From Gammaproteobacteria bacterium (GTDB lineage: Bacteria; Pseudomonadota; Gammaproteobacteria; GCA-001735895), in the NCBI GenBank assembly GCA_029862125.1, contig JAOTXY010000010.1, positions 41 through 64,040 on the forward strand: a stretch of 64,000 bases of DNA, written 5' to 3'. This document shows, one piece after another, positions 34,578-54,945 of this stretch; position 1 is the stretch's first letter, and each line of letters opens with the position of its first letter. The notes under the pieces were generated by a model. It did no database searches and was not told the DNA's origin. It was given only the letters and a program-made list of their open reading frames with translations. The position numbers and the translations under genes are program-made.

Positions 34578-34579
34578 TC

Positions 34580-39917: not shown

Positions 39918-40325
39918 ATGAATAAATGTTCGATAACGGCCGCAATCTTGGCGATCCATTTTTTTATCTGGGTATTACCTGCCGTAACTAACGAGAGCAT
40001 TGCCGGAGGTCACTACCGGATCGGCACGCTTAATGAATCCCACCATTATCGCGACGACGAAGACTTTAATAGCAGCCACAATGGTTTCTATATCGCGCAT
40101 AACAACAATTTGTTTGGCACCTACTACAACTCGGATTTTGCGCAGAGTTTCTTCTACGCGCGCAACCGCCGAATCAACGACATATTCAGTTTCTCGTATG
40201 GCGTCGCCACTGGATACAACGTAGGCATGATTCCAATGGTTGGATTATCCGCACAAATGAGTATCTTCAAACTAACATTGACGCAGGAAGCAGCTGTGAT
40301 TGGCCTTGAGTTTTCGTTGTTATGA
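39918..40325 (+). CDS. Hypothetical secreted/outer-membrane-like protein (135 aa), compositionally AT-richer than surroundings
   Basis: N-terminal hydrophobic segment. Tyr/Asn/Phe-rich with alternating beta-strand-like pattern and terminal F-x-L-L. No recognised domain. Abuts the dmgdh remnant. Confidence 0.35.
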   Translation: MNKCSITAAILAIHFFIWVLPAVTNESIAGGHYRIGTLNESHHYRDDEDFNSSHNGFYIAHNNNLFGTYYNSDFAQSFFYARNRRINDIFSFSYGVATGYNVGMIPMVGLSAQMSIFKLTLTQEAAVIGLEFSLL

Positions 40326-40556
40326 CGCCGCAGTTCGGGATCGTGGCAGCTTGTTTTCCGGGTCGTAGAGCGGCTTGTAACCGACTGACTCTACCTTCAT
40401 CAGAAATTGCTCGCCGAGATATTCCATGATCATCGCACGGCCTTCCTTGCAGTATTCGCGGGGCAGGTAGCCAAGCCCGATATTTTTATCGAGGCTTGGA
40501 CCGTAAGCGATACAAGTGATGTAAGAGCGGCACCCTTTCGCCTCGATCGGAAATCC
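40320..40556 (-). pseudogene. Remnant of the 3' end (last about 78 codons) of a dimethylglycine-dehydrogenase-like gene
   Basis: Gap-free nucleotide alignment, about 80% identical by eye, to 52381-52617, the 3' end of the intact 854-aa gene. The remnant encodes ...GFPIEAKGCRSYITCIAYGPSLDKNIGLGYLPREYCKEGRAMIMEYLGEQFLMKVESVGYKPLYDPENKLPRSRTAAS*, compared with ...IDSKGRRSYLSSIAYGPSIGKNIGLGYLPYEYCEEGRELVTEYLGEQFTMKVAAVGYKPLYDPENKLPRS* in the intact gene. Upstream of the homology are in-frame stops and no start. Confidence 0.8.
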
Positions 40557-40706
40557 CCATGTACTTGACCCTCATCAAGGTTGCCCGCTGATTTTGAAGA
40601 TTTAATAGTAGATTAATCTAACAGAAGATTAGTCGCTACAAGTTTGTCATCTGAAACAGACGAATTTAAACCAAATAACATCAGAAAATTTAAGAGGAGC
40701 ATCATC

Positions 40707-41024
40707 ATGAGCCGTTCACCTAGAATCGCAATAAGCGGGATTGTCGCCCTGTTAAGCGGGGGCCTCGGTCTCAGCCAGAGTTATGCCGCCGATGCGGTGC
40801 CGCGAGCCGAGTTACTGGCGTCCATGTGTATCACCTGTCACGGCGCTAATGGTAAAGGCGCCAAGCCTATGCCTGGGATTAACGGCGAGGAACCCGCCGA
40901 TTTTATCGACCTGATGCAGGCCTTCGCCAACGGTGAAGAGTCCACCAGTATCATGGATCGCCATGCCCAGGGTTATACCGAGGCCGAGCTCAAGCTGCTC
41001 GCCGAATATTTCAGCAAACAATAA
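40707..41024 (+). CDS. Monoheme c-type cytochrome, flavocytochrome c sulfide dehydrogenase cytochrome subunit-like
   Basis: ATG 40707 with AGGAG RBS. Signal peptide. Single CITCH heme motif. 105 aa. Stop 16 nt before the FccB gene. Confidence 0.7.
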   Translation: MSRSPRIAISGIVALLSGGLGLSQSYAADAVPRAELLASMCITCHGANGKGAKPMPGINGEEPADFIDLMQAFANGEESTSIMDRHAQGYTEAELKLLAEYFSKQ

Positions 41025-41039
41025 TAGAGGAGAAAGACA

Positions 41040-42323
41040 ATGAAAGCATATGATCGCAGAGACTTTCTCAAGGTAATCGGAGCCGCGGGCGCAGTAACCG
41101 GGTTGGGTAGCCTGGTGTGGCCAATGGAAGCCCTGGCCGCAGCCAGCGGAAAAGTGGTTGTCGTTGGTGGCGGTTTCGGTGGCGCGACCTGCGCCCGGTA
41201 TCTGAAACGCTGGGGACCCCAACTCGATGTCACCCTGGTTGAGCGCGATACCAGCTATATCACCTGCCCGTTTTCCAACGAGGTGCTCTCGGGTAATCTT
41301 GACATCAGCAAGATTACCCACGACTACGGCAATATCCACGCTCAGGGTATCAATGTGGTGCACGACGAGGTCACCGCTATCGATGCCGGTGGAAAATCGA
41401 TCAACCTCAAGTATGGCGGTTCGATGAAATTCGATAAATTGGTTGTATCACCGGGTATCGCGTTCAAGTGGGGTGCGATTGAAAATGACCAGGCGGCGGT
41501 GCAACGGGCAATGCCGCACTCATGGAAAGCCGGCGAACAGACGCTATTGCTGAGAAAACAGTTGCAGGCTATGCGCGACGGCGGCACCGTCATCATCGTG
41601 CCACCGAAGAAACCGTTTCGCTGTCCACCCGGACCTTATGAACGCGCCAGCCTGATTGCACATTATCTCAAGTGGAACAAGCCGAAGTCCAAAATCCTGA
41701 TTGTCGATGCCAACCCGACCCATTCCAAGCAGGCTGCGTTTCACGAAGCCTGGAACAAGGAATACGGTAACATGATCGAATGGATCAAGGATACCGACGG
41801 TGGCGTCATTACCAGAGCGGATCCGGGCAACATGACCCTGCGCAATGATTTTGGCGACGAATACAAGGGTGATGTAATCAACCTGATCCCCTATCAAAAA
41901 GCGGGCGAACTGGTTGAAACCGCCGGCCTGACCAACAAGGATGGCTGGTGTACCGTCGATATGGGCACTTTTGAATCGGCAAAGGCCAGGGATGTACATA
42001 TCATCGGTGACGCCTGCGTCGCCGGTGCCATGCCAAAATCTGGCCACTCGGCGGCTTCGCAGGCGAAGAATTGTGCTGCTGCGATCGTTTCCATGCTCGC
42101 CGGAGATACACCACCCGAACCGACCTATGCCAACACCTGTTACAGCCTGATCGGACCCAAGTACGGTATTTCGGTGGCCGCAGTTTACCGCCTTAAAGAC
42201 GGGGTCATCGTCAAGGTTTCCGGTGGAGTCAGTAAAGTAGGCAACAAGGATCGGGTACATGAGAACGAAGCCAAGTATGCCCGCGGCTGGTACAAGTCAA
42301 TCACCTCCGACGTGTTCGGTTGA
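41040..42323 (+). CDS. fccB: Flavocytochrome c sulfide dehydrogenase flavoprotein subunit
   Basis: Tat signal RRDFLKVIGAAGAVTGLGS. FAD motif VVVVGGGFGGATCARYL. FCSD-type motifs RCPPGPYERASLIAHYLK and CVAGAMPKSGHSAASQAKNCA. Length is 427 aa. Confidence 0.85.
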   Translation: MKAYDRRDFLKVIGAAGAVTGLGSLVWPMEALAAASGKVVVVGGGFGGATCARYLKRWGPQLDVTLVERDTSYITCPFSNEVLSGNLDISKITHDYGNIHAQGINVVHDEVTAIDAGGKSINLKYGGSMKFDKLVVSPGIAFKWGAIENDQAAVQRAMPHSWKAGEQTLLLRKQLQAMRDGGTVIIVPPKKPFRCPPGPYERASLIAHYLKWNKPKSKILIVDANPTHSKQAAFHEAWNKEYGNMIEWIKDTDGGVITRADPGNMTLRNDFGDEYKGDVINLIPYQKAGELVETAGLTNKDGWCTVDMGTFESAKARDVHIIGDACVAGAMPKSGHSAASQAKNCAAAIVSMLAGDTPPEPTYANTCYSLIGPKYGISVAAVYRLKDGVIVKVSGGVSKVGNKDRVHENEAKYARGWYKSITSDVFG

Positions 42324-42348
42324 GCCGATCGATATCTGGTAATGAGAT

Positions 42349-42378
42349 GGGTGGCGTTCGCGCCACCCCGTTTGATTA
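42349..42378 (+). terminator. Candidate intrinsic terminator after fccB
   Basis: gggtggcg-ttcg-cgccaccc hairpin followed by a U-rich tract (cgtttgatt). Confidence 0.4.
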
Positions 42379-42394
42379 GGAAGTTAATGGACCG

Positions 42395-42862
42395 ATGAGA
42401 AGACGAACTTTATTGCAAAACCTGTCTGCGGTTGCAGCTACCTGGGTGGCCGGCGGTAGCGGTATATTTTATTCAATGCTGGCGAACGCAGCGTCGAGAC
42501 CAGATGCGGCGTTTCTGGCCAAGGATGCCGACACGGCGATGATGGAGGTACTGGGTACCCGGGAAGCCACCGCCAGCGACCAAATCAAGCTCGATGCCCC
42601 GCTGCAGGCGGAAAACGGCGCGGTGGTTCCAATCGAGGTATCGACCACCCTGCCGTCTCCCGAATCTGTCGTCGTGGTGGTGCCTAATAACCCGACACCG
42701 TTGTTGAGCGTCATAGAGACCACGCCCCGTACCGGCAACTACTTCAGAATGCGTATCAAAATGGCGGGCACCGATAACGTCATGGTATATGTCAAATCAG
42801 AAGGCCAGTGGTACGTCACCTCGCAGGAAGTGCGAGTTGCGATCGGCGGCTGCGGTGGTTGA
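42395..42862 (+). CDS. soxY: Thiosulfate-oxidation carrier protein SoxY
   Basis: Tat signal MRRRTLLQNLSAVAATWVAGGS. 155 aa. Ends with the invariant SoxY C-terminal motif VAIGGCGG*. Confidence 0.9.
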   Translation: MRRRTLLQNLSAVAATWVAGGSGIFYSMLANAASRPDAAFLAKDADTAMMEVLGTREATASDQIKLDAPLQAENGAVVPIEVSTTLPSPESVVVVVPNNPTPLLSVIETTPRTGNYFRMRIKMAGTDNVMVYVKSEGQWYVTSQEVRVAIGGCGG

Positions 42863-42891
42863 TATATCGATTTTGCTGAGGAATTTGCACT

Positions 42892-43206
42892 ATGGCGAAA
42901 AGACGTACAAGGCTCAAAGCGGAAATAATGGGCAGTGGTATCCGCGCGACCTGTTTAATCAAACATCCGATGGAAACGGGCAATCGGCTCGATTCTGACG
43001 GCAACAAGATCCCGATTCACTACATCAAGTACGTGAAGTTTTCGGTCAACGGCGAGCATGTCGGCACGCTCAACCTCGGTCCCGGGGTGTCGGCAGATCC
43101 TTATCTATCGTTTGATATTGCCGACGTCAAGGTAGGTGATACGCTCGCCTTGCAGTGGGAAGACAACAAGAGCGAATCGGACACCGTGGAACGCGTCGTC
43201 AAGTAG
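42892..43206 (+). CDS. soxZ: Sulfur-compound chelating protein SoxZ
   Basis: 104 aa. Immediately downstream of soxY. Conserved IKHPMETG and PIHYI blocks of SoxZ. Confidence 0.85.
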   Translation: MAKRRTRLKAEIMGSGIRATCLIKHPMETGNRLDSDGNKIPIHYIKYVKFSVNGEHVGTLNLGPGVSADPYLSFDIADVKVGDTLALQWEDNKSESDTVERVVK

Positions 43207-43241
43207 GCGTTTCAGTGTTTACTGAAGGGGGGCATAGAGTT

Positions 43242-43967
43242 ATGCGTGAATCGGGACTTTTGGTTATGTTGCTGGCGGTTATTATCCACCCCGGAAACGG
43301 GTTAGCTCAGCAAGGCTCGGACACGGAGTTGCCGCCCAGCGTGTCGGCGGAACTCGCGCCTAATTATGAGTCCGGCCCACGTCTGATCCAGGATTTGTCC
43401 GATGAGGCGCAAAAAATTCGCCGCCAGCAATTGATGCGGCAATCGAATCGCGTCATGCCACCGGTACCGCGGGCGCAAAAAAAGGCGCTTTTTGACATGA
43501 TGACCCCCATGAGCAGTATGTCGATGCGCGATCTGTTCAATTTCATGACCGATAAAATCAAGGCCGATCCCGAATTGACATTCGACGACGTCGTCGAGGC
43601 GATGGAACTCAAGGCCAATGAAGTAAATTTCAAAAAAGTGGGGCATAACGAATTCTGGCGGGACGTCAGCGCTTTCTCCGGTTTGCCGACTCTGCGGCTC
43701 GAGATACTCCAGTTCTGCGACGCCTCGGTCGGCCGGCGCATGCTCGATTACAGTCCCGAATTTTCGATTTTCATTCCCTGCCGGATTACGGTCATGGAGG
43801 ACGCCACCGGCGAAATCTGGTTGATGACGCTGGACTGGGACGTCAGCTGGCTGGCGCGAGCCTGGCAGCCTGGATCCCGGCTGGATCCGGAGCTGGTCAA
43901 GGATGCAATCCGTATCCGCGATGCGATGACCGAAATCATGCAGGCCGGCGCCTCCGGAGACTGGTGA
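43242..43967 (+). CDS. Hypothetical periplasmic protein, possibly DUF302-like C-terminal domain
   Basis: ATG 43242 with purine-rich RBS. Signal peptide LLVMLLAVIIHPGNGLA. C-terminal block FSIFIPCRITVMEDATGEIWLMTLDWD resembles the DUF302 core. The assignment is tentative. Confidence 0.35.
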   Translation: MRESGLLVMLLAVIIHPGNGLAQQGSDTELPPSVSAELAPNYESGPRLIQDLSDEAQKIRRQQLMRQSNRVMPPVPRAQKKALFDMMTPMSSMSMRDLFNFMTDKIKADPELTFDDVVEAMELKANEVNFKKVGHNEFWRDVSAFSGLPTLRLEILQFCDASVGRRMLDYSPEFSIFIPCRITVMEDATGEIWLMTLDWDVSWLARAWQPGSRLDPELVKDAIRIRDAMTEIMQAGASGDW

Positions 43968-44030
43968 AGCGGGCATGATCGCAGCCTGAGTTACGGCCTC
44001 GAGGTAATGCCATTATAATTTTTAAATTAT

Positions 44031-44819
44031 TTGAAAGGTGACAGCTTGCAGACACTGGCTTTTCATCGCTCGCTAGCATATTGCGTGAGTGTCCTGTTAC
44101 TCGCCACATTGGTTTTTGCGGCCCGTGCCGAAATCCATTCGACCCTTGAAATCAACGACGAAATCGAAATTGATATTGTCACATTCGGCGAACCGGCGAA
44201 GACCGGCATTATCTGGTTTGCCTGCAGACAGGGGGAGGATGCGATCGAGTTTGAAACCGCAAGAAAGCTGGTAAGCAGGGGGTATCAGATTTATTTCCCC
44301 GATATGTTGAGTGCGCATTTCCTGTCGTCCCTGCCGTCGAATATCGCGCGGATTCCGGCTGCCGAGGTTGTCACTGTGATCAGGCATATCATCGATACCT
44401 CGACTGCCGAGCGATTGTTTCTGCTGGCCGGCGCACGCGCCGCGGTACCGATAATCCGCGGCCTGGCCGATAAAAATTTGCAACAGATGGACTCGAAATT
44501 GAAAGGTGCATTATTGATCACTCCCCGAATTTACAAAACAATGCCCGATCCCGGCTCCGAACCGGTTTATATCGATGAAACTGGATTGTCAATCCACCCA
44601 ATCCTGGTACTGGAAGGCGAACGTACCCCTAACCGTTGGGGATTGCCGCATTTGGTAGCAGCGCTAACAAAATCAGGCAGCCGGGTGCAAACCGATTTGA
44701 TTGACGGAGTGCGCGGCTACTTTTATTTACGCGACAACCAGACCCCGGCCGAGATGGAATTAACCCGCCAACTCGATTCATTGATTCATGATAATTTGCA
44801 GAAACTCGGAGCAATTTGA
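44031..44819 (+). CDS. Hypothetical secreted protein (262 aa)
   Basis: Signal peptide SLAYCVSVLLLATLVFAARA. No recognised domain. 4-nt overlap with the downstream TlpA gene suggests co-translation within the sulfur cluster. Confidence 0.4.
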   Translation: MKGDSLQTLAFHRSLAYCVSVLLLATLVFAARAEIHSTLEINDEIEIDIVTFGEPAKTGIIWFACRQGEDAIEFETARKLVSRGYQIYFPDMLSAHFLSSLPSNIARIPAAEVVTVIRHIIDTSTAERLFLLAGARAAVPIIRGLADKNLQQMDSKLKGALLITPRIYKTMPDPGSEPVYIDETGLSIHPILVLEGERTPNRWGLPHLVAALTKSGSRVQTDLIDGVRGYFYLRDNQTPAEMELTRQLDSLIHDNLQKLGAI

Positions 44820-45337
44820 GAATGGGTTTTTACCGGCACCTGATATTTTGTCTGTCGCTGGCTTTACTGGGTCAGCAGGCGCAGGCTGTCGCGGGTCAGT
44901 TAAAAGAATATTGGGGTGATATGACGTCACCCGAGATTGAATTACCCGATTTGCAGGGGCGGCAACATTCGCTGGCCGACTATCACGGCAACGTCGTGCT
45001 GGTACAGTTCTGGGCTACCTATTGCACGCCCTGTCGTACCGAAATGCCGACCATGAATCGGCTGATTAAAAAGATGCGAGGTAAGCCGTTCAAAATCGTC
45101 ACCGTCAACATGGCCGAATCACCCGGGCAGGTGCGGCAGTTTTTACAGGAAGTGCCGGTCGACTTTCCGGTGCTAATGGATAGCGATGGCAGCACCCTGA
45201 GTCGATGGAAGGTTTTTGCCGCTCCAGCAAATTTTATTCTCGACAAGCAGGGTAAAATCACCTTTACGCTGTACGGTGCAATTGAATGGGATTCGGATGA
45301 AATGGTCAGTCGGTTAAACGCGCTGAGCGAAGAATAA
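44816..45337 (+). CDS. TlpA/ResA-family periplasmic thiol-disulfide oxidoreductase (SoxW-like thioredoxin)
   Basis: Signal peptide. Thioredoxin CxxC active site WATYCTPCRTEMP. Length is 173 aa. Confidence 0.8.
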   Translation: MRMGFYRHLIFCLSLALLGQQAQAVAGQLKEYWGDMTSPEIELPDLQGRQHSLADYHGNVVLVQFWATYCTPCRTEMPTMNRLIKKMRGKPFKIVTVNMAESPGQVRQFLQEVPVDFPVLMDSDGSTLSRWKVFAAPANFILDKQGKITFTLYGAIEWDSDEMVSRLNALSEE

Positions 45338-45352
45338 GTTCATCCGGCAGAC

Positions 45353-45970
45353 TCAGTTAACCGAGGCATAGAAATTCAGCAGCGCCTCGATGTCCTCCTG
45401 ATTCAGCTTCTTCAGCCGGTTTGACATGCGCCGTGACACGAGGCGTTTGCCGCTGAGAATATTTTTGAACTGCAGCCTCAGGTATGGCGTCCATTGCCCG
45501 GCGAGGATGTTCTTGTCATCTGTGGGTTCGGTACCGTTTTTCAGGTGACATCGTTCGCAATGCTTCTCGTGTAGAATTGCGCCGCGACTGGCAAGTTCCG
45601 GATTAAACGCCTGACTTCTTGGGATATACTTCCGCTTGGAAAAATAATTCGCCAGCCCCTTGAGATCCGCGTCGCTCAATTGCTTCGCAATGTTGATCAT
45701 AACGGTTTCGGGCTCGTTGGGCTGCTGAAATTCAATTGCGATACGCCTGTTTTCCCGATACTCGTCCATGGTGTAGAGAAATCCCGCGTAGGAAAAACCG
45801 GAGATGCTCGGGAAAATAGGTAATACGCTGTTACCATCCTGTCCATGACAGATCTCGCAACGTATTACCAGGTCGTCAGTATCTTCGGCAGGCCCGGGAG
45901 CGGTAAATAGCGCAAGGCCTACCGTTAACAGGTAAGCGGGAACACGGTGCATGAGCCGGATCACAATCAT
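45353..45970 (-). CDS. Diheme c-type cytochrome
   Basis: Signal peptide. Two heme motifs, CEICH and CERCH. Length is 205 aa. Confidence 0.7.
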   Translation of the reverse strand: MIVIRLMHRVPAYLLTVGLALFTAPGPAEDTDDLVIRCEICHGQDGNSVLPIFPSISGFSYAGFLYTMDEYRENRRIAIEFQQPNEPETVMINIAKQLSDADLKGLANYFSKRKYIPRSQAFNPELASRGAILHEKHCERCHLKNGTEPTDDKNILAGQWTPYLRLQFKNILSGKRLVSRRMSNRLKKLNQEDIEALLNFYASVN

Positions 45971-46151
45971 CTGTTACCACACTTGGCATGTTTAAGCCCG
46001 ATATTAATCAAAACTTGCCGAAATGGATTGATATATCTCAATCCGTGTCTTTTTTACTTTGGAGCTGGTTCCGAAAACCAGGAATGAAACTTGCGCCTAT
46101 CAGGCGATCGCGAATGTTGCTGCCCCTAGGCCGAGGCGAACAGGTGATACT

Positions 46152-46691
46152 TTATTGTGCGGGCATCGGCAGCGGCATCTGGGTGCCAGGCACCATGCCC
46201 CATGGCCAGCTGTGCATGCCCGGTAGCGGATCACCCGGATTTAGGCCGTACTTCTCTTCGACCGCGCGCTGCCAATATTCGGCGGCTTTCGGGTCCGATA
46301 TCGACGCCATCATGTCGTTGTAGGCTTCAGGATTAGCCATCGTCATCGGATTCATCATCGCCGAGACGTAGGGGCCGAAGAATTGCTGATAGCGGCCCAC
46401 GTCTTCGTTGTCATGACAGGCCGCGCAGCTGCTGATCGGATTGGCCCAGATGCGCGGATCCATCGACATCGTCATCATCATGGCCCAGCTGTTGGGATCC
46501 ATTGTTTTTGCTATGGTTTTAGCGGCCCGGTTAACTTCGCTGGAACCAGACGCTGCCTGTTGGTCCTGCGCCTGCAACGGATTGCTGGCCAATACCGTCA
46601 CCAACAATACTAAAAATAAAATACCGGCTAAACCCTTACTCTGCGTCGCATGAAACCATTGGTTAAGCTTGATCATAGCGAAATCCATCAC
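46152..46691 (-). CDS. Met-rich monoheme c-type cytochrome-like secreted protein sharing the MNP-x-x-Y motif with the downstream repeat protein
   Basis: Signal peptide. Single CAACH motif. Met-rich segments AMMMTMSMDPRIWANP and AMMNPMTMANPEAYNDMM. C-terminal MHSWPWGMVPGTQMPLPMP. Overlaps the cytochrome c5 gene by 4 nt. Confidence 0.55.
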   Translation of the reverse strand: MMDFAMIKLNQWFHATQSKGLAGILFLVLLVTVLASNPLQAQDQQAASGSSEVNRAAKTIAKTMDPNSWAMMMTMSMDPRIWANPISSCAACHDNEDVGRYQQFFGPYVSAMMNPMTMANPEAYNDMMASISDPKAAEYWQRAVEEKYGLNPGDPLPGMHSWPWGMVPGTQMPLPMPAQ

Positions 46692-47044
46692 TGTGAATTG
46701 TGGATGATGTAGTCGACCGCGGCCCTAACCTGATCGTCGGTGAGGTTCCAGTTGCCGCCGCGCGCCGGCATGCGTTTGCCGGAACTGCCGGTCCAGCCAT
46801 TAATTGCGTGCCGATACAAAACTGTCCTGCCGCTATCGATACGCGCCTTCCAGGCATTTTTATCACCGATTCGCGGCGCGCCACCAACGCCCGGCCAGTG
46901 GCAAACCGTACAGGTACGATTAAATACGCCCCAGCCTTCTTTCAAACGTTCGGTCGAGGGTTGCTCCTCGGCAAACGCAGGCCCTGTTAACGACGCCAGG
47001 CCAACGCCGAGTCCAAGAATCATTGCTTGTAAATGATGGTTCAT
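46688..47044 (-). CDS. Cytochrome c5 family monoheme cytochrome
   Basis: Signal peptide. CTVCHWPGVGGAPRIGD followed by a conserved R..GGNW.LTDD.V..AV.YI region. Length is 118 aa. Confidence 0.8.
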   Translation of the reverse strand: MNHHLQAMILGLGVGLASLTGPAFAEEQPSTERLKEGWGVFNRTCTVCHWPGVGGAPRIGDKNAWKARIDSGRTVLYRHAINGWTGSSGKRMPARGGNWNLTDDQVRAAVDYIIHNSQ

Positions 47045-47104
47045 GCGTCTTCTCGCTGCCTTATCTCCGTCGTTGCAATGGCCCGCCTCGATATACCAGT
47101 TTGA

Positions 47105-47830
47105 TCACTGGCCGGATTCCGGCTGGGTCGGCGGTCGCGGCATGTAGGTCGATGGATTGAATGGGTTAAAAAATGACTGCCCCTGGGTTGCCTGACCGGG
47201 TACCTGTCCCGGTTGCATCATCTGGGTCCAGGCGTTGGGGTCAAACCAGTTGAGCGCCGGCGCCTGTGCCGTTGTCGGGAACGTGTAAGCCGCTGGATTC
47301 ATCCATTGCATGTAAGTCGCGGGATTCATGTACATCGCGTAATTCCCGGGATTCATCCATTGCATGTAGGTCGAGGGATTCATGAAGGTCATGTACTCCA
47401 TCGGATTCATCATCGCCATATAGTTCGAGGGATTCATGAAGTTCATGTAAGACGCTGGATTCATCCAGCTCATCCAGTTGTTGGGATTGGCGAATTGCAT
47501 GTAGAACTGCGGCGTCATGAATTGACCGTAAGTCGCCGGGTTCATGAAGGCACCATAGGTGCTGGGCCGCATGAAAGCCGACCAGCCTCCTGGCGTCGCC
47601 AAATTCAGATGCGACGGGGCACCGGGCATGGCAGGCATTCCTGTCATACCTGGCATCGTCGTCGCACCTGGCATCGCCATCCAGGATGACGAATCGAACC
47701 AGTTGGGGACAACGGGTTGAGCCTGAGCCGCAGCTGTACCCGTCGGTAACTTAAGGTACAAAGATGTTATCGGTGGTGCCGCCCACAGCACGCTAATCAA
47801 TGCGAGGGCTGCAAATGTTTTCCTGATCAT
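47105..47830 (-). CDS. Secreted Met/Asn/Pro/Tyr-rich protein with 11 tandem nonapeptide repeats ([F/W]MNPxxYMx), function unknown
   Basis: Signal peptide AALALISVLWAAP. MPG-rich linker (MPGATTMPGMTGMPAMPGAP). Then FMRPSTYGA FMNPATYGQ FMTPQFYMQ FANPNNWMS WMNPASYMN FMNPSNYMA MMNPMEYMT FMNPSTYMQ WMNPGNYAM YMNPATYMQ WMNPAAYTF, then a Gln/Pro-rich tail. Uninterrupted ORF with consistent codon usage. Confidence 0.6.
   Translation of the reverse strand: MIRKTFAALALISVLWAAPPITSLYLKLPTGTAAAQAQPVVPNWFDSSSWMAMPGATTMPGMTGMPAMPGAPSHLNLATPGGWSAFMRPSTYGAFMNPATYGQFMTPQFYMQFANPNNWMSWMNPASYMNFMNPSNYMAMMNPMEYMTFMNPSTYMQWMNPGNYAMYMNPATYMQWMNPAAYTFPTTAQAPALNWFDPNAWTQMMQPGQVPGQATQGQSFFNPFNPSTYMPRPPTQPESGQ
47279..47575 (-). 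repeat. 27-bp tandem repeat array (11 units) inside the CDS, encoding the MNPxxYMx nonapeptides
   Basis: Visible in DNA as a reiterated gggattcatgaaNgtcatgtaNNNNNN-like unit. Units diverge at wobble and variable-residue positions. Confidence 0.7.
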
Positions 47831-48158
47831 GGGAACCTCCAGCTAAGCCTCAATTGACGTAATCGATAACGCCACTACGGTTATTCCAATAATTTAAACC
47901 GTATTGGTTGCCAGATATATACCCCACAAGATATATGGTCTTCTATCGAAGGAGTTTTGATCGAATATCGCGCGCATAATTGCTGGTGGAACGCCGGTAG
48001 GTCGAAAATCAAGTTCGGTCAATAGCCACAATTTGTGCGATTTTTTTGATCTGCGTCAACTAGGAAGGGATAAGTATCCGTTTAATAAAATTGAAATTGG
48101 CGTGGATGTAATTACGTCAATCAATCAAAACAATTAATCTCAATCTTGGGGAGCTTTA

Positions 48159-48866
48159 ATGGATATCAAACAAATTGCAAGTTGGCTTCTTGCTTTGACA
48201 TTTATAGCCTGTTCACAGCTTAGCTATGCTGATGAAGTCTCGGCGATTGCACGCGGCGGAAAATTATACGATAAATGGTACGCGGTTATCGGTGCCGCCA
48301 AGCCTGATGGCACCCATCCGGCCTGGCCTGCATCCAATACCAAAAAGAAGGGCGCCACGACCCATCGCTGCAAATCCTGTCACGGTTGGGATTTAATGGG
48401 TAAGGACGGCGCCTATGCATCGGGTTCGTATAAAACCGGCATCGGTGGACTCACGCAACTGCAGGGTGCCGCAAACGCCAAAGTGATTGCGGCGTTGGAA
48501 GACTCGACTCACGGCTATGCCGGCAAGTTGAGTCAGCAGGATCTCACCGATCTGGCCAATTTCCTGACCAAGGGGCAATTCGATATCGACGCGGTAATCG
48601 ACCGTAAATCGAGAAAGGCCAAAAATGGTGACCGCTCCAAGGGTGAGTCTATTTACAAGACTGTCTGCGCTAACTGCCATGCAGAATCCGGCACGGAACC
48701 GGAGGGAATGCCCCCGCTCGGCGCACTTTCAAACAAAAACCCCTGGGAGACGATCCAGAAGATCATGAATGGCCAGCCCGATTCCGAGATGCCGGCGATA
48801 CGTGCTTTTGGCCTTCAGGTTGCGGTCGACATTCTGTCTTACGTGCAAACCCTGCCGAAGGAGTAG
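48159..48866 (+). CDS. Diheme c-type cytochrome
   Basis: Signal peptide. Heme motifs CKSCHGWD and CANCHAES. Length is 235 aa. Confidence 0.7.
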   Translation: MDIKQIASWLLALTFIACSQLSYADEVSAIARGGKLYDKWYAVIGAAKPDGTHPAWPASNTKKKGATTHRCKSCHGWDLMGKDGAYASGSYKTGIGGLTQLQGAANAKVIAALEDSTHGYAGKLSQQDLTDLANFLTKGQFDIDAVIDRKSRKAKNGDRSKGESIYKTVCANCHAESGTEPEGMPPLGALSNKNPWETIQKIMNGQPDSEMPAIRAFGLQVAVDILSYVQTLPKE

Positions 48867-48915
48867 CGGTCAATCTCTGCTTAAGGCGTAACCCCTTTTT
48901 CGCCGACCTGCAACA

Positions 48916-49833
48916 TTAGTCGGCGAGGCGGGTGGTCATCGGGTTGGTTTCGTATTGCGTCCACTGGTGCAGCGAACCATCGTACAATTTGACGTCCTGT
49001 TTGCCGAGTATTTCGCGCAATACGAACCAGGCCGATGAGGCTTCATAGCCGCTGTTGCAGTACAGGATCAGGCTATCGCCAGTATTGATGCGCAGCGAAT
49101 CGAGCAGGCTCAGGTAAGATTCACGGTCGAAGTAGCGATTGCCACCCTTCATCGGATTCAGAAATTTATATGGCATATTACGTGAGCCTGGAATATGCCC
49201 GTTGGCGTAAACGTAATCCTTCTTTTCGAGACCGACATGATAGCGTAGCTCACGCGTATCGATCAGCGTCACCGCATCATCCTGCATCGCTGCCCGAACC
49301 TGCTCCATGGTTGCCACCATATCCGGCTTTTCATCGCCAACCACGTAATTACCGGGCGTTACCGTGTCCACCTCGGTAACCAGGTCTTCGAGCGAGGCGA
49401 CCCAGCTCGGATTGCCGCCATCGAGTAATGTTACCCGGTCGAAGCCAAAATATTTCATGTGCCAATACAGCCGCGCGGCGCCGGTGACCTGCCCGGAGGT
49501 TTTGCCGCGATGCGTCAAAACCACGATGCTGTCACTATTAATCCCGTGCGCACGCATGAATTTTTCGAAGCTGGCGGGATCCGGTCGCATTCGCGTGATG
49601 TTCTTGTCATTGATGTCGCGCTCGATCCGTATCTCTTTCACATCGACCAGTATCGCGCCCGGAATATGTCCGTCAGTGAAACTCTTGATATTTTTGCGCA
49701 CGTCGAGGACCACAACCTCGTCGATATTGTTGGCCAGCCATTCGCCTTTGACCAGCGGCCCGGGGAATTCCACCGCGGCCAATTGTGACCCGTAAAAAAG
49801 TCCAAGCATTACCATCAGTAATAATTTCTTCAT
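48916..49833 (-). CDS. Periplasmic tandem-rhodanese thiosulfate/3-mercaptopyruvate sulfurtransferase
   Basis: Signal peptide. Two rhodanese domains. Catalytic loop LILYCNSGYEASS with active-site Cys. Confidence 0.8.
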   Translation of the reverse strand: MKKLLLMVMLGLFYGSQLAAVEFPGPLVKGEWLANNIDEVVVLDVRKNIKSFTDGHIPGAILVDVKEIRIERDINDKNITRMRPDPASFEKFMRAHGINSDSIVVLTHRGKTSGQVTGAARLYWHMKYFGFDRVTLLDGGNPSWVASLEDLVTEVDTVTPGNYVVGDEKPDMVATMEQVRAAMQDDAVTLIDTRELRYHVGLEKKDYVYANGHIPGSRNMPYKFLNPMKGGNRYFDRESYLSLLDSLRINTGDSLILYCNSGYEASSAWFVLREILGKQDVKLYDGSLHQWTQYETNPMTTRLAD

Positions 49834-49941
49834 AACAACACCTCATACCATTAATCTAATGATGCTGAGTCTGAATGCCGCGATCATGACCTTAGTCAAC
49901 TAAAACCATCAGGATCAGGCACGGTCTAACTTCAGGCTGGC

Positions 49942-51312
49942 TTAACTGTAAAACATGTCGCGGTACATGCCCTCGGCCCAGGCCAGGCTGGCCTGGCCAC
50001 CCTGTGTATCCCAGCGCTCGATTAAATGCGTACGGTCGAACGCGAACTCGCCGGTTTTGTCGCTGAACTTGTAGTAGGTAATGATGCTCATCGCGCGCAG
50101 CGGATCTATGTCGACCGCGGAAAAACACATGGTTTGCGGGCTGCGCCAGCGCACCTCCTTGTCGAGTGCGTGCGCGGCGACCACCTCGGCGACATACTGC
50201 GCTTCCGAGTGTGCGGTATGGCCGCCCTTGGAAAAGGGTTGCGAACGCGAATCGCCGGTCACGTAAACGCGTTCGTCGTCGAGCAGGTGATAACGAAACG
50301 GGTCGGTATTGGCCGCCTTTTGCGGGCTGATCGGACTGGCGATGCCGTTATCCTCGATCAGGCGCGACGCGCGCACCGGCGGGTAAATAATCGCGTCGTC
50401 GAAATCGTACTCGTCAAACTCGGTTTCGACGCGGCGGCCTTCAATGTCGATGTTGGTGATCTCGGAACTCGACAGGTACTCGATGTAATCGCCGTAGAGC
50501 TCGGCAAAGGCGCGCGCGAAACCGGCCTTCTTGATGCGAATTTCGGCATTCATGTCGAGCAGCAGAATTTTTGCGCGCACGCGCTGGCGCTTGAACAGAG
50601 CCGCCACCATGCAGGCGCGCTCATAGGGCGCTGCCGTACAGCGAAAATCGCCGTTAGGCACGTTGAGCAGGAAGGTGCCGCCGCTGAAGCGATGAATCTT
50701 GCGTTTAATTGTCAACAGTTCCGAGCTCGAGACGAAACCGCCGGGATATCGGTGAAACAGCAGGTTTTGCGCCTCGGTATCCTCGATCCCGATGCGCCCG
50801 TAGTCGTATTCGATGCCGGGCGCGAGCACCAGATAATCGTAGTCGACGAAACCTTTTTCGGTGTAGACGCGGCGGGTCTCGCGATCGAAACCGAGCACGG
50901 TCGCCTGCATGAAGTGATAATCGTGGTTATTCGCAGCATCGAAAAAACTGTGACTCAGAAAATCGAGATCGACCTGGTCGGCGAGCCATGAATTGCTAAT
51001 TGGAAAGGACACGAATGCCGACTGTCGATCGATCAATATTACGTCAAAGCCGGGATTGAAAAGGCGCAGGTACTTTGCCATCGTCAGCCCCGACCAGCCG
51101 CCACCGACGATCACGACGCGTGCCCCCCGGGGCCTTGGCAAGGTGGCCTTGCGCAACAGGCTGTTGAGCGCGGGCGCCTGGCACATTTCGTTATTATCCG
51201 CGCCCGTAGCGACGTTGGCGCTAACCGTAGTCGCCGCGAGCGCGACGCCGGAAGCCTGCAGAAATCTGCGTCGCTCGAGATCGGTGTTTTCTTTCATCTT
51301 TGGAGCCTTCAT
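49942..51312 (-). CDS. FccB/SoxF-family flavoprotein sulfide dehydrogenase (second copy), Tat signal
   Basis: Tat signal RRRFLQASGVALAATTVSA. FAD motif VVIVGGGWSGLTMAKYL. FCSD-like RCTAAPYERACMVAALFK, parallel to FccB RCPPGPYERASLIAHYLK. Length is 456 aa. Confidence 0.75.
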   Translation of the reverse strand: MKAPKMKENTDLERRRFLQASGVALAATTVSANVATGADNNEMCQAPALNSLLRKATLPRPRGARVVIVGGGWSGLTMAKYLRLFNPGFDVILIDRQSAFVSFPISNSWLADQVDLDFLSHSFFDAANNHDYHFMQATVLGFDRETRRVYTEKGFVDYDYLVLAPGIEYDYGRIGIEDTEAQNLLFHRYPGGFVSSSELLTIKRKIHRFSGGTFLLNVPNGDFRCTAAPYERACMVAALFKRQRVRAKILLLDMNAEIRIKKAGFARAFAELYGDYIEYLSSSEITNIDIEGRRVETEFDEYDFDDAIIYPPVRASRLIEDNGIASPISPQKAANTDPFRYHLLDDERVYVTGDSRSQPFSKGGHTAHSEAQYVAEVVAAHALDKEVRWRSPQTMCFSAVDIDPLRAMSIITYYKFSDKTGEFAFDRTHLIERWDTQGGQASLAWAEGMYRDMFYS

Positions 51313-52010
51313 TTGAAATCGGGATTACGCCAGGCCGTATCAGGCGCGAGATCGGATGCTGGCACCGGCAGATGCGATACGTAGTTCAACACCTGGTCGA
51401 AATCCTGTTCCGACAGCGTCGTGAACAGGTTGGCCATCACCGGTGCGACCCGGCGCAGGCGGTCGCGCGCCAGGCGCGCCTGGCGTTTCATGTAGGTATA
51501 GTGCTGTCCTTGCAGGCGCGGATAGGACAGCTCGTTTTTGCCTTCGCCGTACTGCCCGTGGCAGCTAATGCAGTATTGCCGGTAGAGTCTTTTACCGGAT
51601 TCGTATTCTTCGCTGTCGACGGGCCATGGTCCGCGGTTGTGCATAGGGTTCATCGGCAATGTCGAAATGTAGGCAACCACGTCGCTCAGATTCTGGTAAC
51701 CGCCGATGGTGCGTTCCTGCACGAACGGCTGCATCGTTGGGTTGGCGCGCTGCCCGCTGCGTATATCGAGTAATTGTTTCATCAGCACGTTGACATGCTG
51801 CCCGGCGATCTGCGGATAGGTACCGTCGTCGTTGCCCCAGGCCTCGGGCAGGTGGCAGCGCGCGCAGATTTCGAAACTGCGACGACCGTTGTCGAGGTCG
51901 GGTGTGAATTCGAGCACCACGCGAATCGGCTCGACGGCAGCCAGTTTCGACGAAAATACCAAAACCAGTATGCAAAGGCTGTAGCAAAGCGTTATATGTA
52001 TCCTGTTCAT
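51309..52010 (-). CDS. Diheme c-type cytochrome, flavocytochrome c cytochrome subunit-like (FccA/SoxE-like)
   Basis: Signal peptide. CARCH and CISCH motifs. Lies directly upstream of, and overlaps by 4 nt, the FccB/SoxF-like gene. Confidence 0.7.
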   Translation of the reverse strand: MNRIHITLCYSLCILVLVFSSKLAAVEPIRVVLEFTPDLDNGRRSFEICARCHLPEAWGNDDGTYPQIAGQHVNVLMKQLLDIRSGQRANPTMQPFVQERTIGGYQNLSDVVAYISTLPMNPMHNRGPWPVDSEEYESGKRLYRQYCISCHGQYGEGKNELSYPRLQGQHYTYMKRQARLARDRLRRVAPVMANLFTTLSEQDFDQVLNYVSHLPVPASDLAPDTAWRNPDFK

Positions 52011-52380: not shown

Positions 52381-54945
52381 TCAGGATCGCGGCAGCTTGT
52401 TTTCCGGGTCGTAAAGTGGCTTATAGCCGACCGCGGCAACCTTCATCGTAAATTGCTCGCCCAGGTATTCGGTGACCAGCTCACGGCCTTCCTCGCAATA
52501 TTCGTAGGGCAGGTAGCCCAAACCGATATTCTTGCCGATGCTAGGACCGTAGGCGATACTGCTGAGATACGAGCGACGGCCTTTTGAGTCGATCGGCACC
52601 TCGCCCGTTTCGGAATCCATCAGTGGGCACTGACCGACCGGGTAACGCGCGATGCCATTCGAGTCAACGTTGTCGTCCATCACTAACGTACACAGGTAGG
52701 CGGCCTGGTGTTCGAGCTCGCGTTGCTCGAGATAGGGCGCCTTGCCGTGGAAGTCCGCTGCCTTGACTACGGGGCGCGCCAGGCCGGCCTCGTACAGGTT
52801 GTACTCGGTCAGCAGGTCGGCGTTTTGCAGGCGCAGGCTCTTTTCCATGCGTCGGGTGTTGGCATAGGTTTCGACACCGACCGGGGTCGCGCCCTGGGCG
52901 TAGACCAGGTCCCATAGGGACAGGCCGTAGCTAAACGCCACGTGCAGTTCCCAACCCTGTTCGCCCACGTACGAAATGCGAAAGGCCTCGACCGGGATGC
53001 CCTTCAACGTAAGTTGCCGGGTTGCGGCGAACGGGAAGTTTTCATCCTCCCAGGCGGCAGGGTCGTCAGCGATTGCCTGAATCGTCTGGCGCGCATTCGG
53101 GCCCCAGACACCCAGGCAGGCCATGTGATCCGAGCGATCATCGATGTAAACGTTCCAGCCCTTGTCTTCGGCCATGCGCTTGAGCCAGATGTAGTCGCGG
53201 TGTCCCGCGTCAGCGCCGTCGATTACCCGGAAGCGGTCCTTAGCATGGCGGATCACCGTTAAGTCCGCGCGCACGCCGCCGCGTTTGTCGAGGAAGTGCG
53301 TGTAAACACCTTTGCCGATAGGCGTGTCGCCACCGACCTTGGCGACGCAGGTGAATTCCATCAGGGCCTCGGCGTCGGGCCCGATGACGTCATAGACGGC
53401 GAAATGCGACAGGTTGATCATGCCGACGTTCTCCGACATCGCGAGTTGTTCGGCATTGGATACACGCCAGAAGTGACGGTTGTCCCACTCGTGTTCACGT
53501 ACCGGTACTCGATCGCCGTATTTCTCCAGCAGCGGTTCGTTGGCGGCGTAACCGTGAGCGCGCTCCCATCCCGACAGTTCCATGAAATAACCACCCAGTT
53601 CCTGTTCGCGTGCCCAGAACGGACTGCGGCGCAGGTTGCGCCCCTTGGTATAGGGCTCGCGATTATGAACCGCGGGGTTGTAAATCTTGAACGCGGATTC
53701 GAAGCAACGATCGTAAATATAGGAAGGCGTTTTCTGAATCGGGTAGTGGCGCGCGGTGTCGATACCGAAGAAGTCCATCTCTGCGACGCCGTCGGTCATC
53801 CAGTCCACCAGCACCTTGGCGATGCCGGGGGCGTCCTTGACCCAGACCGCGATCGCGTACCAGAGGCCGCGGGTTTGTGAGGATTCGCCGATCGACGGTC
53901 CGCCGTCGGTGGTCACCTGCAGCAGACCGTTAAACGAGTGTTTCTCGTTGTAACCGATTTCGCCGAGAATCGGTGTCAGTTCCATGGCGCGCTCCAGCGG
54001 CTCCATGATCTGTTCGAGTTCGAGATCGCGCTGTGACGGTGACCAGTGGGTCTCGCCTTTTTCGGGAAGGTCACGCGGGTGTACCAGTCGAGGCTCCTTT
54101 TCTTCGTAGTAGCCCCACTCGATCTGGCCACCTTCCGGCGTTTTCGGATCGCCGGTATCGCGCATGTAGGCGGAGTTGCCCTGGTCGCGCAGCAGCGGGA
54201 AACCGATGTCCTTGCCGGTGGCTTCGAATTCAGTGTACGGTGCGAAGAAGGAGAGCGGGTGATCGACTGGCATGACCGGCAGATCCTCACCGGCCATCTC
54301 CGCGATGGTACGCCCCCACAGTCCCGTACACACGATGACGTGGTTGGCGGCAATGTAGCCGCGGCTGGTTTCCACACCGACAATGCGTCCCTCCTGGATG
54401 TCGAGGCCGGTCGCCGTGGTGTTGGCAAAGGATTGCGCCTTGCCGGTCTTGACCGCGTTATCGACCAGTATGCCGGCAACGGTTTGCGAGCGGGGTTTCA
54501 CCAGGCCCGCGTCGGGATCCCACATCGCGCCCTGGATCATGTCTTCTTCGAGCAGCGGGAACAGTTCCTTGGCCTCGGCCGCGCTGATCATTTTCACGTT
54601 GGTGCCGAAAGCCTTGCCGGAAGCAACCTTGCGCTTGAGCTCCATCATGCGGTCGTCATCGCCTTTACGCGCTACCTCGAGGCCACCGATACGCGAGTAA
54701 TGACCCATCTGGTCGAAGAACTCGATGCTGTAGTGCGTGGTGTAGCAGGTAAACTTGCTGTGATCGGTGGCATAGCAGAAATCGGAGGCGTGCGAAGTCG
54801 AGCCGCAATCGGTCGGAACCGAGGTCATGTCGATGCCGACGATATCTTCCCAGCCGCGTTCGACCAGGTGATGCATCACCGAGGCGCCGACAATGCCGCC
54901 GAGGCCGATGATGACGACGTTGGATTTATCTGGAAACTGGGCCAT
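52381..54945 (-). CDS. Dimethylglycine/sarcosine dehydrogenase family protein (FAD DAO domain + GcvT aminomethyltransferase domain)
   Basis: Start MAQFPDKSNVVIIGLGGIVGAS with AGGAGAA RBS. 854 aa. N-terminal FAD oxidase domain and C-terminal folate-binding GcvT domain (…SYVGEQGWELHV…). The ORF track start at 55062 adds 39 non-homologous residues. Confidence 0.8.
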   Translation of the reverse strand: MAQFPDKSNVVIIGLGGIVGASVMHHLVERGWEDIVGIDMTSVPTDCGSTSHASDFCYATDHSKFTCYTTHYSIEFFDQMGHYSRIGGLEVARKGDDDRMMELKRKVASGKAFGTNVKMISAAEAKELFPLLEEDMIQGAMWDPDAGLVKPRSQTVAGILVDNAVKTGKAQSFANTTATGLDIQEGRIVGVETSRGYIAANHVIVCTGLWGRTIAEMAGEDLPVMPVDHPLSFFAPYTEFEATGKDIGFPLLRDQGNSAYMRDTGDPKTPEGGQIEWGYYEEKEPRLVHPRDLPEKGETHWSPSQRDLELEQIMEPLERAMELTPILGEIGYNEKHSFNGLLQVTTDGGPSIGESSQTRGLWYAIAVWVKDAPGIAKVLVDWMTDGVAEMDFFGIDTARHYPIQKTPSYIYDRCFESAFKIYNPAVHNREPYTKGRNLRRSPFWAREQELGGYFMELSGWERAHGYAANEPLLEKYGDRVPVREHEWDNRHFWRVSNAEQLAMSENVGMINLSHFAVYDVIGPDAEALMEFTCVAKVGGDTPIGKGVYTHFLDKRGGVRADLTVIRHAKDRFRVIDGADAGHRDYIWLKRMAEDKGWNVYIDDRSDHMACLGVWGPNARQTIQAIADDPAAWEDENFPFAATRQLTLKGIPVEAFRISYVGEQGWELHVAFSYGLSLWDLVYAQGATPVGVETYANTRRMEKSLRLQNADLLTEYNLYEAGLARPVVKAADFHGKAPYLEQRELEHQAAYLCTLVMDDNVDSNGIARYPVGQCPLMDSETGEVPIDSKGRRSYLSSIAYGPSIGKNIGLGYLPYEYCEEGRELVTEYLGEQFTMKVAAVGYKPLYDPENKLPRS

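Follow-up and report, generated by a model that had tools for sequence, protein, structure and literature searches.

A conserved fccAB-soxYZ-DUF302 operon without soxAXB at the locus: core of a putative periplasmic sulfide-oxidation island in Gammaproteobacteria

When a soxYZ pair is encoded beside flavocytochrome c, with soxAX, soxB and soxCD missing from its surroundings, is it part of a sulfide-handling module in its own right, or one dispersed fragment of an ordinary Sox pathway? We investigated this question on contig JAOTXY010000010.1 of an uncultured marine gammaproteobacterium (assembly GCA_029862125.1), of which a stretch of 64,000 nucleotides, hereafter the window, was analysed. Fifteen closely spaced genes, all with products predicted to be periplasmic, occupy 40.7-52.0 kb of the window (Table 1), and they begin with fccA-fccB-soxY-soxZ followed by a gene of the DUF302 family. 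The window lies on a single contig, 68,795 bp long, of a metagenome-assembled genome (MAG), and our statements about absent genes cover the window and its related loci, which are denoted by L and a number. Gene identities were assigned by Pfam and NCBIfam scans and by comparison with solved structures in PDB. Every product of the island carries a Sec or Tat signal peptide in its sequence, the sole exception being SoxZ, and the whole set is therefore predicted to be periplasmic.

The first-pass annotation of this DNA had named SoxY (with a C-terminal GGCGG) and SoxZ, and both exceed the curated NCBI equivalog cut-offs. SoxY scores 131.7 bits against TIGR04488, 'SoxY_true_GGCGG' (cut-off 125), and matches Pfam SoxY (3e-29) and PDB 2nnc_A (7e-20); SoxZ, encoded directly after soxY, scores 95.7 bits against TIGR04490 (cut-off 76). 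The FccA/FccB pair, also named there, was borne out by matches to subunits of flavocytochrome c sulfide dehydrogenase (FCSD) in both PDB and Pfam. FccB1, the product of fccB, matches 5n1t_A (5e-143), 1fcd_A (3e-127), FCSD_central (3e-48) and FCSD-flav_bind (3e-27), and it keeps the Cys that binds flavin adenine dinucleotide (FAD) covalently as well as both redox Cys. The best PDB matches of FccA1 are the FccA haem subunits 3vrd_A (2e-14), 1fcd_C and 5n1t_B. Compared with the enzymes of Thioalkalivibrio paradoxus (5N1T) and Allochromatium vinosum (1FCD), FccB1 aligns end to end with all catalytic Cys in place and FccA1 is monohaem like 5n1t_B, so that we see no difference as an enzyme; it is the operon partners that differ.

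The locus is carried by four GTDB species representatives, all uncultured Gammaproteobacteria, at 88-97% protein identity. With the long DUF302 family as seed, 80 loci were retrieved from metagenomes and annotated by tblastn; three arrangements could be distinguished among them. In the first (17 loci, DUF302 about 57-97% identical to that of the window), soxY and soxZ lie immediately 5′ of DUF302; fccA-fccB-soxY-soxZ-DUF302 is present in 8/8 of the loci reaching further upstream, and the other nine are partial and consistent with it. Usually u262-tlpA and a convergent c4 cytochrome come next, and no window-type metagenome locus has soxX, soxA or soxB within 10 kb (tblastn). In the second arrangement (DUF302 61-65% identical; an Arenicellales MAG and a 5.18 Mb genome), the order is soxX-Y-Z-A-B, Met-rich proteins and DUF302, with TusA, DsrE, Dsr or YeeE genes close by and fccAB 7 kb off. 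In the third (DUF302 47-51% identical), soxXYZA is divergent from DUF302 and a haem-Met-rich gene. Colinearity extends over the full island in L004 and L019, and through c235 in L003, whose contig ends there; the core operon also occurs in L021, L025, L027, L029, L031, L032 and L034, and in nine partial loci. Altogether, tightly spaced fccA-fccB-soxY-soxZ-DUF302 was found in 11 loci including the window (fccA-fccB gap, 15 bp; soxY-soxZ gap, 29 bp), from several species-level lineages and metagenomes. The ratio dN/dS is 0.06-0.19 for fccB, soxY, soxZ and DUF302 (0.06-0.15 for soxZ), and the operon genes are under purifying selection and not decaying. The locus is thus a real, conserved and selectively maintained module, and a functional tie of SoxYZ to flavocytochrome c is supported by this conservation.

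Between fccB and soxY lies a hairpin, GGGTGGCG-TTCG-CGCCACCC, with an 8-bp stem containing 7 GC pairs, and a comparable hairpin folds in 9/9 loci of the operon type. RNAalifold predicted no pairs for it, the intergenic regions being misaligned. The hairpin may act in intercistronic processing or in transcript stability, or as a partial terminator.

Some relatives differ in what surrounds the core or in its order. Genes for Nap (NapA, NapG/H-like, NapC-like) lie immediately 5′ of fccA in L027 (1480-7443), L029 (1433-7474) and L032 (about 1372-7332), and NapD-NapA lie directly 3′ of fccAB in L016 (19132-20768), whose fccA is 50% identical to that of the window. These neighbours, seen in relatives and not in the window, hint at sulfide oxidation coupled to nitrate reduction. 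On two partial contigs the order itself is changed: L060 (591-1052) encodes a SoxY with the arm VRVA (55% identical) 3′ of a DUF302, and L059 (4597-6243) has an fccAB pair (66% identical) about 4 kb 3′ of a DUF302. The module therefore appears to have been rearranged more than once.

SoxAX, SoxB and SoxCD had been reported as missing from the window, and this holds in all searches that we made. Family scans of every open reading frame (ORF) of >= 180 aa, excluding those nested within a longer ORF on the opposite strand, found no matching family for any of the three in the 64 kb. With SoxX, SoxA and SoxB from three related lineages as queries, tblastn gave no match at E <= 0.01 in the window and nothing in L001-L004, the four closest genomic relatives. 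As to SoxCD, the window has neither a molybdoenzyme nor an extra haem ORF; outside the island, a window-wide CxxCH scan found only two haem ORFs, which encode the cytochrome subunit of a dehydrogenase and a cytochrome c′. These two, at 19.4-21.0 kb, have the right sizes for SoxA and SoxX and were rejected as such on these identities (8hdd_B, 1e-58, for the dehydrogenase subunit). Likewise, c118 was rejected as SoxX (16.7 bits against TIGR04485, cut-off 61; SoxX tblastn negative) and c235 as TsdA (its sequence is without the extra Cys ligand), and the labels 'soxA/soxB/soxG' in the family-scan tables refer to sarcosine oxidase families. The haem ORFs outside the island belong to a redox cluster on the minus strand (19412-21724) that consists of the dihaem dehydrogenase-type cytochrome c subunit, the cytochrome c′ and a YceI-family protein; no dehydrogenase catalytic subunit adjoins the dihaem subunit in the window. 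Gammaproteobacteria normally have their sox genes split over separate loci (PMC11237559, PMC3368242). A single contig without soxAXB therefore cannot establish the 'partial Sox system' that the first-pass annotation saw here.

The carrier motif GGCGG is invariant in all 31 complete SoxY that we compared, and the residues before it separate two groups. The arm is VRVA(I/V/L)GGCGG in 11/11 SoxY of the fccAB-soxYZ-DUF302 type (10 encoded directly 5′ of DUF302 and one, in L060, 3′ of it) and VKVT(V/I)GGCGG in 20/20 soxXA-linked SoxY. An arm of the form VT(I/V)GGC has been described as a hallmark of thiosulfate-oxidising SoxY (PMC11237559); the window SoxY departs from it by a change of Thr to Ala (VAIGGC). 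Ala stands at this position in 3 of the best 150 cluster representatives and Thr in about 80. Searching 1.8 billion cluster representatives gave a single 50% cluster near the window SoxY (68% identical), the next being at 48%. By these sequence relationships, the fccAB-linked SoxY form a narrow, distinct subfamily with a rare carrier arm.

Divergence is uneven within the locus. The window SoxY and SoxZ share 39-46% identity with the soxXYZAB-linked copies, compared with 57-63% among the latter, whereas DUF302 is 61-67% identical in all these comparisons and thus about equidistant. When SoxY and DUF302 of these loci are compared by neighbour joining, both trees resolve into three clades with one and the same topology, and the stem branch to the window-type SoxY is longer. 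This pattern fits inheritance of SoxYZ in place, with faster change on the branch of the fccAB-linked SoxY.

The neighbours of soxYZ are consistent with such a descent. Relative to the soxXYZAB clusters, the window has fccAB in place of soxX, and the positions of soxA and soxB are empty. It retains the accessory gene set of a sox cluster, because its Met-rich and haem-Met-rich proteins are homologous to genes between soxB and DUF302. MNP241 contains a 9-residue repeat ([FWYM]-M-N-P-x-x-Y-M-x) present in 11 exact copies, with 12% Met; its homologues between soxB and DUF302 in L016 (8758-9429, 223 aa) and L018 (9311-9811, 166 aa) retain the NPxxY 9-mer core and reach 21% Met. As a speculation, MNP241 might be a structural or sulfur-binding protein of the envelope. 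Homologues of hM179 adjoin DUF302 in the sox clusters of L016 (9496-9942) and of the third arrangement (L077-L097). The DUF302 protein itself (Pfam DUF302, 2e-10; 100% identical to MDH3630237.1) is extended at its N terminus by about 110 aa, and C159 and C180 are invariant in alignment A1 of the long form (QFCDA, IPCRI); its AlphaFold model is of low confidence (pLDDT 55). The long form adjoins sox genes in three different cluster arrangements, and our literature search found no paper tying DUF302 to sox clusters.

The periplasmic rhodanese is the other component whose connection to SoxYZ extends beyond the island. It had been described as a periplasmic tandem-domain protein, and indeed it has two domains, a signal peptide (MKKLLLMVMLGLFYGSQLAAV) and one catalytic Cys, which aligns to the active site of PDB 1uar_A (5e-28); its best NCBIfam match, ExtH, is below the cut-off. 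In L021, soxYZ-DUF302-c235-rhodanese lie on one strand, and c235 directly follows DUF302 on the same strand in both L021 and L026. Because rhodanese and c235 are linked to the core in this second, independent arrangement, they are probably tied to it functionally, and the association of the rhodanese with SoxYZ made in the first-pass annotation stands.

We propose that the locus is an island for the periplasmic oxidation of sulfide and sulfane sulfur, with fccA-fccB-soxY-soxZ-DUF302 as its core, in a mixotrophic or heterotrophic sediment gammaproteobacterium; in this proposal as a whole we place middling confidence. FccAB would oxidise HS- to the sulfane level and deliver the electrons to the c-type cytochromes of the island, and from there they would reach a terminal oxidase or a nitrate reductase. 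SoxYZ, presumably co-transcribed and with its VRVA-GGCGG arm, would hold the sulfane or polysulfane product as SoxY-Cys-S(n), and the periplasmic rhodanese would move sulfane sulfur onto or off SoxY, similar to the role proposed for SoxL. The two-Cys DUF302 and the Met-rich proteins would be accessory factors from an ancestral soxXYZAB-DUF302 cluster, and SoxAX and SoxB would be outside this module. With sulfide, SoxYZ is readily polysulfurated, and the resulting SoxY(S)nZ is competent as a carrier (PMC5336275); SoxF has a stimulating effect on Sox activity in vitro, according to ref. 18 as cited in PMC5336275; and SoxL has been proposed to unload SoxY in A. vinosum (PMC3368242). This literature makes the mechanism plausible, and a SoxAX-independent loading of SoxY would likewise be plausible. 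A stronger form of the proposal, which we advance tentatively and hold to be decidedly doubtful, is that a widespread clade of sediment Gammaproteobacteria has a SoxYZ pathway independent of SoxAX and SoxB, as green sulfur bacteria would have by convergence. In it, flavocytochrome c would oxidise sulfide directly onto the Cys of the variant SoxY, and rhodanese, DUF302 and NPxxY-repeat Met-rich proteins would, as new accessory factors, relay the sulfane sulfur further, for instance to sulfur in the periplasm or outside the cell.

Several observations weigh against the proposal. The window SoxY exceeds the curated cut-off for 'true' SoxY of the thiosulfate pathway. None of the sulfane-sulfur acceptors SoxCD, Dsr, sHdr, YeeE, TusA and DsrE is encoded in the window. 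Split sox loci are normal in Gammaproteobacteria (PMC11237559, PMC3368242), and SoxAX and SoxB may be encoded elsewhere in the genome and use this SoxYZ. A. vinosum fccAB knock-outs have no sulfide-oxidation phenotype (PMC3368242), and FccAB may be dispensable because these mutants oxidise sulfide normally. The scan for promoters and terminators was uninformative, the sites being no more frequent than in shuffled sequence. Finally, the loading of SoxY by FccB or rhodanese, which the first-pass annotation had suggested, is an inference.

The explanation that best survives besides our own is that the Sox system here is truncated in the ordinary way and its genes are dispersed: soxAX and soxB would lie elsewhere, this SoxYZ would be the only one and handle thiosulfate intermediates as in A. 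vinosum, and fccAB would be merely a co-regulated neighbour, comparable to soxEF in the sox cluster of Paracoccus. We regard it as possible, if somewhat doubtful. In its favour, A. vinosum, Thiodiazotropha and Thiohalomonadales have two or three separate sox loci (PMC3368242; PMC11237559), the window SoxY passes TIGR04488 and keeps GGCGG, and the trees of SoxY and DUF302 suggest descent of this SoxY from a soxXYZAB-linked copy. It is less easily reconciled with the comparison of loci: the sister lineages keep soxX, soxA and soxB beside soxYZ and DUF302, where all eight of the window-type loci reaching that far have fccAB, and soxXAB are within 10 kb in no window-type locus. Nor does it account for the much larger divergence of SoxY and SoxZ than of the neighbouring DUF302, or for the replacement of a near-universal Thr in the arm by Ala; moreover, fccAB-linked SoxYZ of green sulfur bacteria are found where soxAX and soxB are absent (PMC10158934).

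Alternatively, a canonical soxXYZAB may be present elsewhere, with the SoxYZ encoded here a specialised second copy, a paralogue for another sulfur substrate or for flavocytochrome c. A separate second soxYZ is known in Sedimenticola, within a wider expansion of the SoxY family (PMC11237559); the window SoxY is 41-46% identical to cluster-embedded SoxY; and the VRVA-arm SoxY of L060, lying 3′ of DUF302, means that the order varies. We nevertheless consider a second copy unlikely, given that SoxY and DUF302 have congruent topologies and that DUF302 and Met-rich genes have stayed beside soxYZ, both of which favour descent of the ancestral copy in place, and that no second soxYZ was found in about 170 kb around six such loci. 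That a heterotroph uses FccAB for sulfide detoxification or redox buffering, with SoxYZ, DUF302 and rhodanese as leftovers of a decayed sox cluster, is highly improbable: the island does lie within genes for betaine, carnitine and sarcosine catabolism, and no carbon-fixation or cytoplasmic sulfur-oxidation genes are in the window, but purifying selection is clear for soxY, soxZ and DUF302 (omega 0.06-0.19), gene order is kept across lineages down to about 57% DUF302 identity, and GGCGG is invariant.

Returning to the island that we propose, its members do not all belong to one module. The first-pass annotation had grouped FccA/FccB, a second flavocytochrome, the rhodanese and a TlpA thioredoxin around SoxYZ in a sulfide/persulfide module. 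The tie to fccAB (conserved operon, purifying selection) and the link to the rhodanese hold, whereas TlpA and the second flavocytochrome drop out of the module, although their identities were correct. TlpA has the motif WATYCTPC, AhpC-TSA (6e-24) and Redoxin (9e-21) domains, and matches below the cut-off to the ResA and TlpA models. It is always directly preceded by u262, which it overlaps by 4 bp in the window, and in three distant genomes (L013, L014, L015) u262-tlpA has neither sox nor fcc genes within 10 kb. TlpA is thus a periplasmic CxxC redoxin, as SoxW and SoxS are, but without a specific association with sox; it was rejected as a dedicated SoxW/SoxS, its conserved partner being u262. 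The protein u262 has no Pfam or NCBIfam match; its AlphaFold model (pLDDT 91.8) resembles esterases and dienelactone hydrolases in Foldseek (TM about 0.6). The elbow of u262, AGARA, lacks a Ser nucleophile; the protein also has an invariant Cys in WFAC.QGE and a motif EGERTPNRW. The u262-tlpA module is often found near a dihaem c4 cytochrome, and also without any sulfur genes. In the island, this cytochrome is c4_205 (NCBIfam PdsA, 3e-29, below cut-off); its gene and tlpA are convergent here and also in L027, L031 and L032.

FccB2 is likewise a genuine FCSD-like flavoprotein (5n1t_A, 3e-38; FCSD_central, 4e-23), as had been claimed, with FCSD-flav_bind at 19.1 bits (cut-off 26) and an overlapping gene for a c4-type dihaem cytochrome. 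This partner, c233, matches cytochrome c4 8uf3_A (3e-14) and 1fcd_C only at 0.0046. The FccB2 family has > 880 clusters, and in the 119 members examined both redox Cys are kept (119/119) and the covalent-FAD Cys is lost, Phe standing in its place in the window protein and in 119/119. Pairing of a c4 cytochrome with FccB2 is conserved in L005-L012, and in four other genomes the two form a self-contained pair amid unrelated genes, for which reason we rejected FccB2 and rhodanese as a conserved unit. The family has no name; each member is paired with a c4-type dihaem cytochrome, often amid heterotrophic genes, and standard pipelines call its proteins generic oxidoreductases or fccB. In CP070646.1 the FccB2-family gene is truncated. 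By their distribution, u262-TlpA and c233-FccB2 are modules of their own, acquired by the island only within this narrow clade; found elsewhere without sox, they are not evidence for the SoxYZ pathway. The island has 6 CxxCH proteins with 9 haem motifs in total (CxxCH scan), so that, beyond the two Fcc partners, there are 4 haem proteins carrying 6 motifs; the 'six further c-type cytochromes' of the first-pass annotation are 4 proteins, six being the number of their haem motifs. Two units are read on the minus strand, one from 47830 down to 45353 (MNP241, c118, hM179, c4_205) and one from 52010 down to 48916 (c233, FccB2, overlapping by 4 bp, and rhodanese).

Table 1. Genes and other features of the island and its boundaries, in window coordinates
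Feature	Description	Coordinates	Strand	Support
Left boundary repeat	degenerate copy of the 3′-terminal 77 codons of the dimethylglycine-dehydrogenase-like gene, stop codon lost	40335..40568	-	
fccA	monohaem cytochrome c subunit (CITCH), Sec signal, 105 aa	40707..41024	+	PDB FccA subunits
fccB/soxF	flavocytochrome c sulfide dehydrogenase flavoprotein, Tat signal	41040..42323	+	Pfam, PDB
Hairpin	GC-rich, between fccB and soxY	42349..42368	+	folding
soxY	sulfur-carrier subunit, Tat-type signal, arm VRVAIGGCGG	42395..42862	+	TIGR04488, PDB
soxZ	partner subunit, own signal peptide lacking	42892..43206	+	TIGR04490
DUF302	long-form periplasmic DUF302 protein, 241 aa, two invariant Cys	43242..43967	+	Pfam DUF302
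u262	membrane-anchored, alpha/beta-hydrolase fold, 262 aa, no family	44031..44819	+	AlphaFold/Foldseek
tlpA	TlpA/ResA-like periplasmic thiol:disulfide oxidoreductase (CTPC)	44816..45337	+	AhpC-TSA, Redoxin
c4_205	dihaem cytochrome c4-type protein	45353..45970	-	CEICH, CERCH; PdsA below cut-off
hM179	monohaem (CAACH) Met-rich periplasmic protein, no family	46152..46691	-	
c118	monohaem cytochrome c	46688..47044	-	Cytochrome_CBB3 4e-11
MNP241	secreted Met/Asn/Pro-rich repeat protein, no Cys	47105..47830	-	
c235	dihaem cytochrome c	48159..48866	+	CKSCH, CANCH; Pfam
Rhodanese	periplasmic, tandem-domain, single catalytic Cys (LYCNSGYEA)	48916..49833	-	Rhodanese 1e-28
FccB2	divergent FCSD-like flavoprotein, Tat signal	49942..51312	-	FCSD_central 4e-23
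c233	dihaem c4-type cytochrome, FccB2 partner	51309..52010	-	CARCH, CISCH
Right boundary repeat	3′ end of intact dimethylglycine-dehydrogenase-like gene (52381-55062)	52381..52611	-	

The 15 genes are enclosed exactly, over about 11.8 kb, by imperfect direct repeats on the same strand (40335-40568 versus 52381-52596, 79% identical over 216 nt; blastn), and the left repeat is 72.7% identical to residues 817-893 of the dimethylglycine-dehydrogenase-like protein (tblastn). The block looks like an insertion at the 3′ end of the gene for this protein, and the repeats like an old insertion scar; no integrase is present at the island. L003 and L004 likewise have the left fragment upstream of fccA, and in L019 an intact dimethylglycine-dehydrogenase-like gene directly follows the last island gene, so the insertion is probably older than the split of these lineages. 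Just left of the boundary, the plus strand (39918-40325) encodes a 135-aa secreted Tyr/Asn/Phe-rich protein of no family, which is 80% identical in L004.

A large set of genes for the catabolism of quaternary amines and methylamines surrounds the island (12232-17747, 30683-35509 and 52381-63243). It includes GcvT/DmdA-like proteins, a ThiO-like oxidase, the alpha and gamma subunits of sarcosine oxidase, the dimethylglycine-dehydrogenase-like protein and BKACE, together with a 3-hydroxyacyl-CoA dehydrogenase, electron-transfer flavoprotein alpha/beta and a GbdR-like AraC regulator. The families in the rest of the window include those of betaine, carnitine, dimethylglycine and sarcosine catabolism, ATP-binding cassette (ABC) transporters, Lol proteins and malate dehydrogenase. 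These surroundings point to a host with a heterotrophic or mixotrophic lifestyle.

Flavoproteins encoded with soxYZ are known from complete sox clusters, such as that of Paracoccus pantotrophus, in which soxEF is encoded with soxYZ. Paracoccus soxEF and Chlorobaculum tepidum SoxF resemble the arrangement here in that an FCSD-type flavoprotein is encoded with soxYZ, in Paracoccus together with a cytochrome partner; their clusters hold SoxAX, SoxB and, in Paracoccus, SoxCD, which are absent from the locus in every relative that we examined. A. vinosum is similar in having soxYZ apart from soxXA and soxB and no SoxCD, and in a periplasmic rhodanese, SoxL, that is proposed to take sulfane sulfur off SoxY (PMC3368242). 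SoxL is, however, encoded with soxXAK, whereas the window rhodanese is near soxYZ with no soxXA nearby; the A. vinosum SoxY has the canonical arm VTIGGC (PMC11237559), and fccAB does not adjoin soxYZ there. The soxXYZAB-(Met-rich)-DUF302 clusters of Arenicellales and related Gammaproteobacteria (L016-L018, L042-L046) share with the window the long DUF302, the Met-rich and the haem-Met-rich proteins, and their nearby fccAB is 66% identical; unlike the window, they have soxX, soxA and soxB, the VKVT arm and TusA/DsrE/Dsr flanks.

The closest precedent is that of green sulfur bacteria, for which PMC10158934, citing Gregersen, Bryant & Frigaard 2011 and confirming it for Prosthecochloris, describes a soxYZ-fccAB cluster in strains without soxAX and soxB. 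There, as here, soxYZ lie directly beside fccAB. By the account in PMC10158934, these SoxYZ are about 30% identical to SoxYZ of sox clusters, compared with 39-46% here. The bacteria are Chlorobiota and not Gammaproteobacteria, and the gene order is reversed relative to the fccAB-soxYZ of the window, which also differs in its two-Cys DUF302, Met-rich proteins, rhodanese and apparent origin from a soxXYZAB cluster. The likeness is thus one of gene arrangement and SoxYZ divergence, the absence of soxAXB here being at the level of the locus. That SoxYZ may work with flavocytochrome c without SoxAX and SoxB is, given this precedent, not a new idea. What is new is a version from Gammaproteobacteria whose gene order is the reverse, which appears to derive from a soxXYZAB-DUF302 cluster, and which has a diagnostic substitution in the arm and an accessory set of DUF302, NPxxY-repeat protein, haem-Met-rich protein and rhodanese.

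The interest of the module lies mainly in the role of flavocytochrome c in vivo, A. vinosum fccAB mutants oxidising sulfide normally (PMC3368242). Here, a second, independent lineage joins fccAB to an arm-variant SoxYZ and drops soxXAB from the locus, and the hypothesis that SoxY is the sulfur acceptor of FccAB becomes concrete and testable with four recombinant proteins. The sox-linked DUF302 and Met-rich proteins are candidates for new Sox accessory factors. When sediment Gammaproteobacteria are annotated from metagenomes, the combination 'soxYZ present, soxAXB absent' may reflect a real functional state and not MAG incompleteness, and the VRVA arm could mark that state. If true, direct oxidation onto SoxY would give FccAB its long-sought physiological role.

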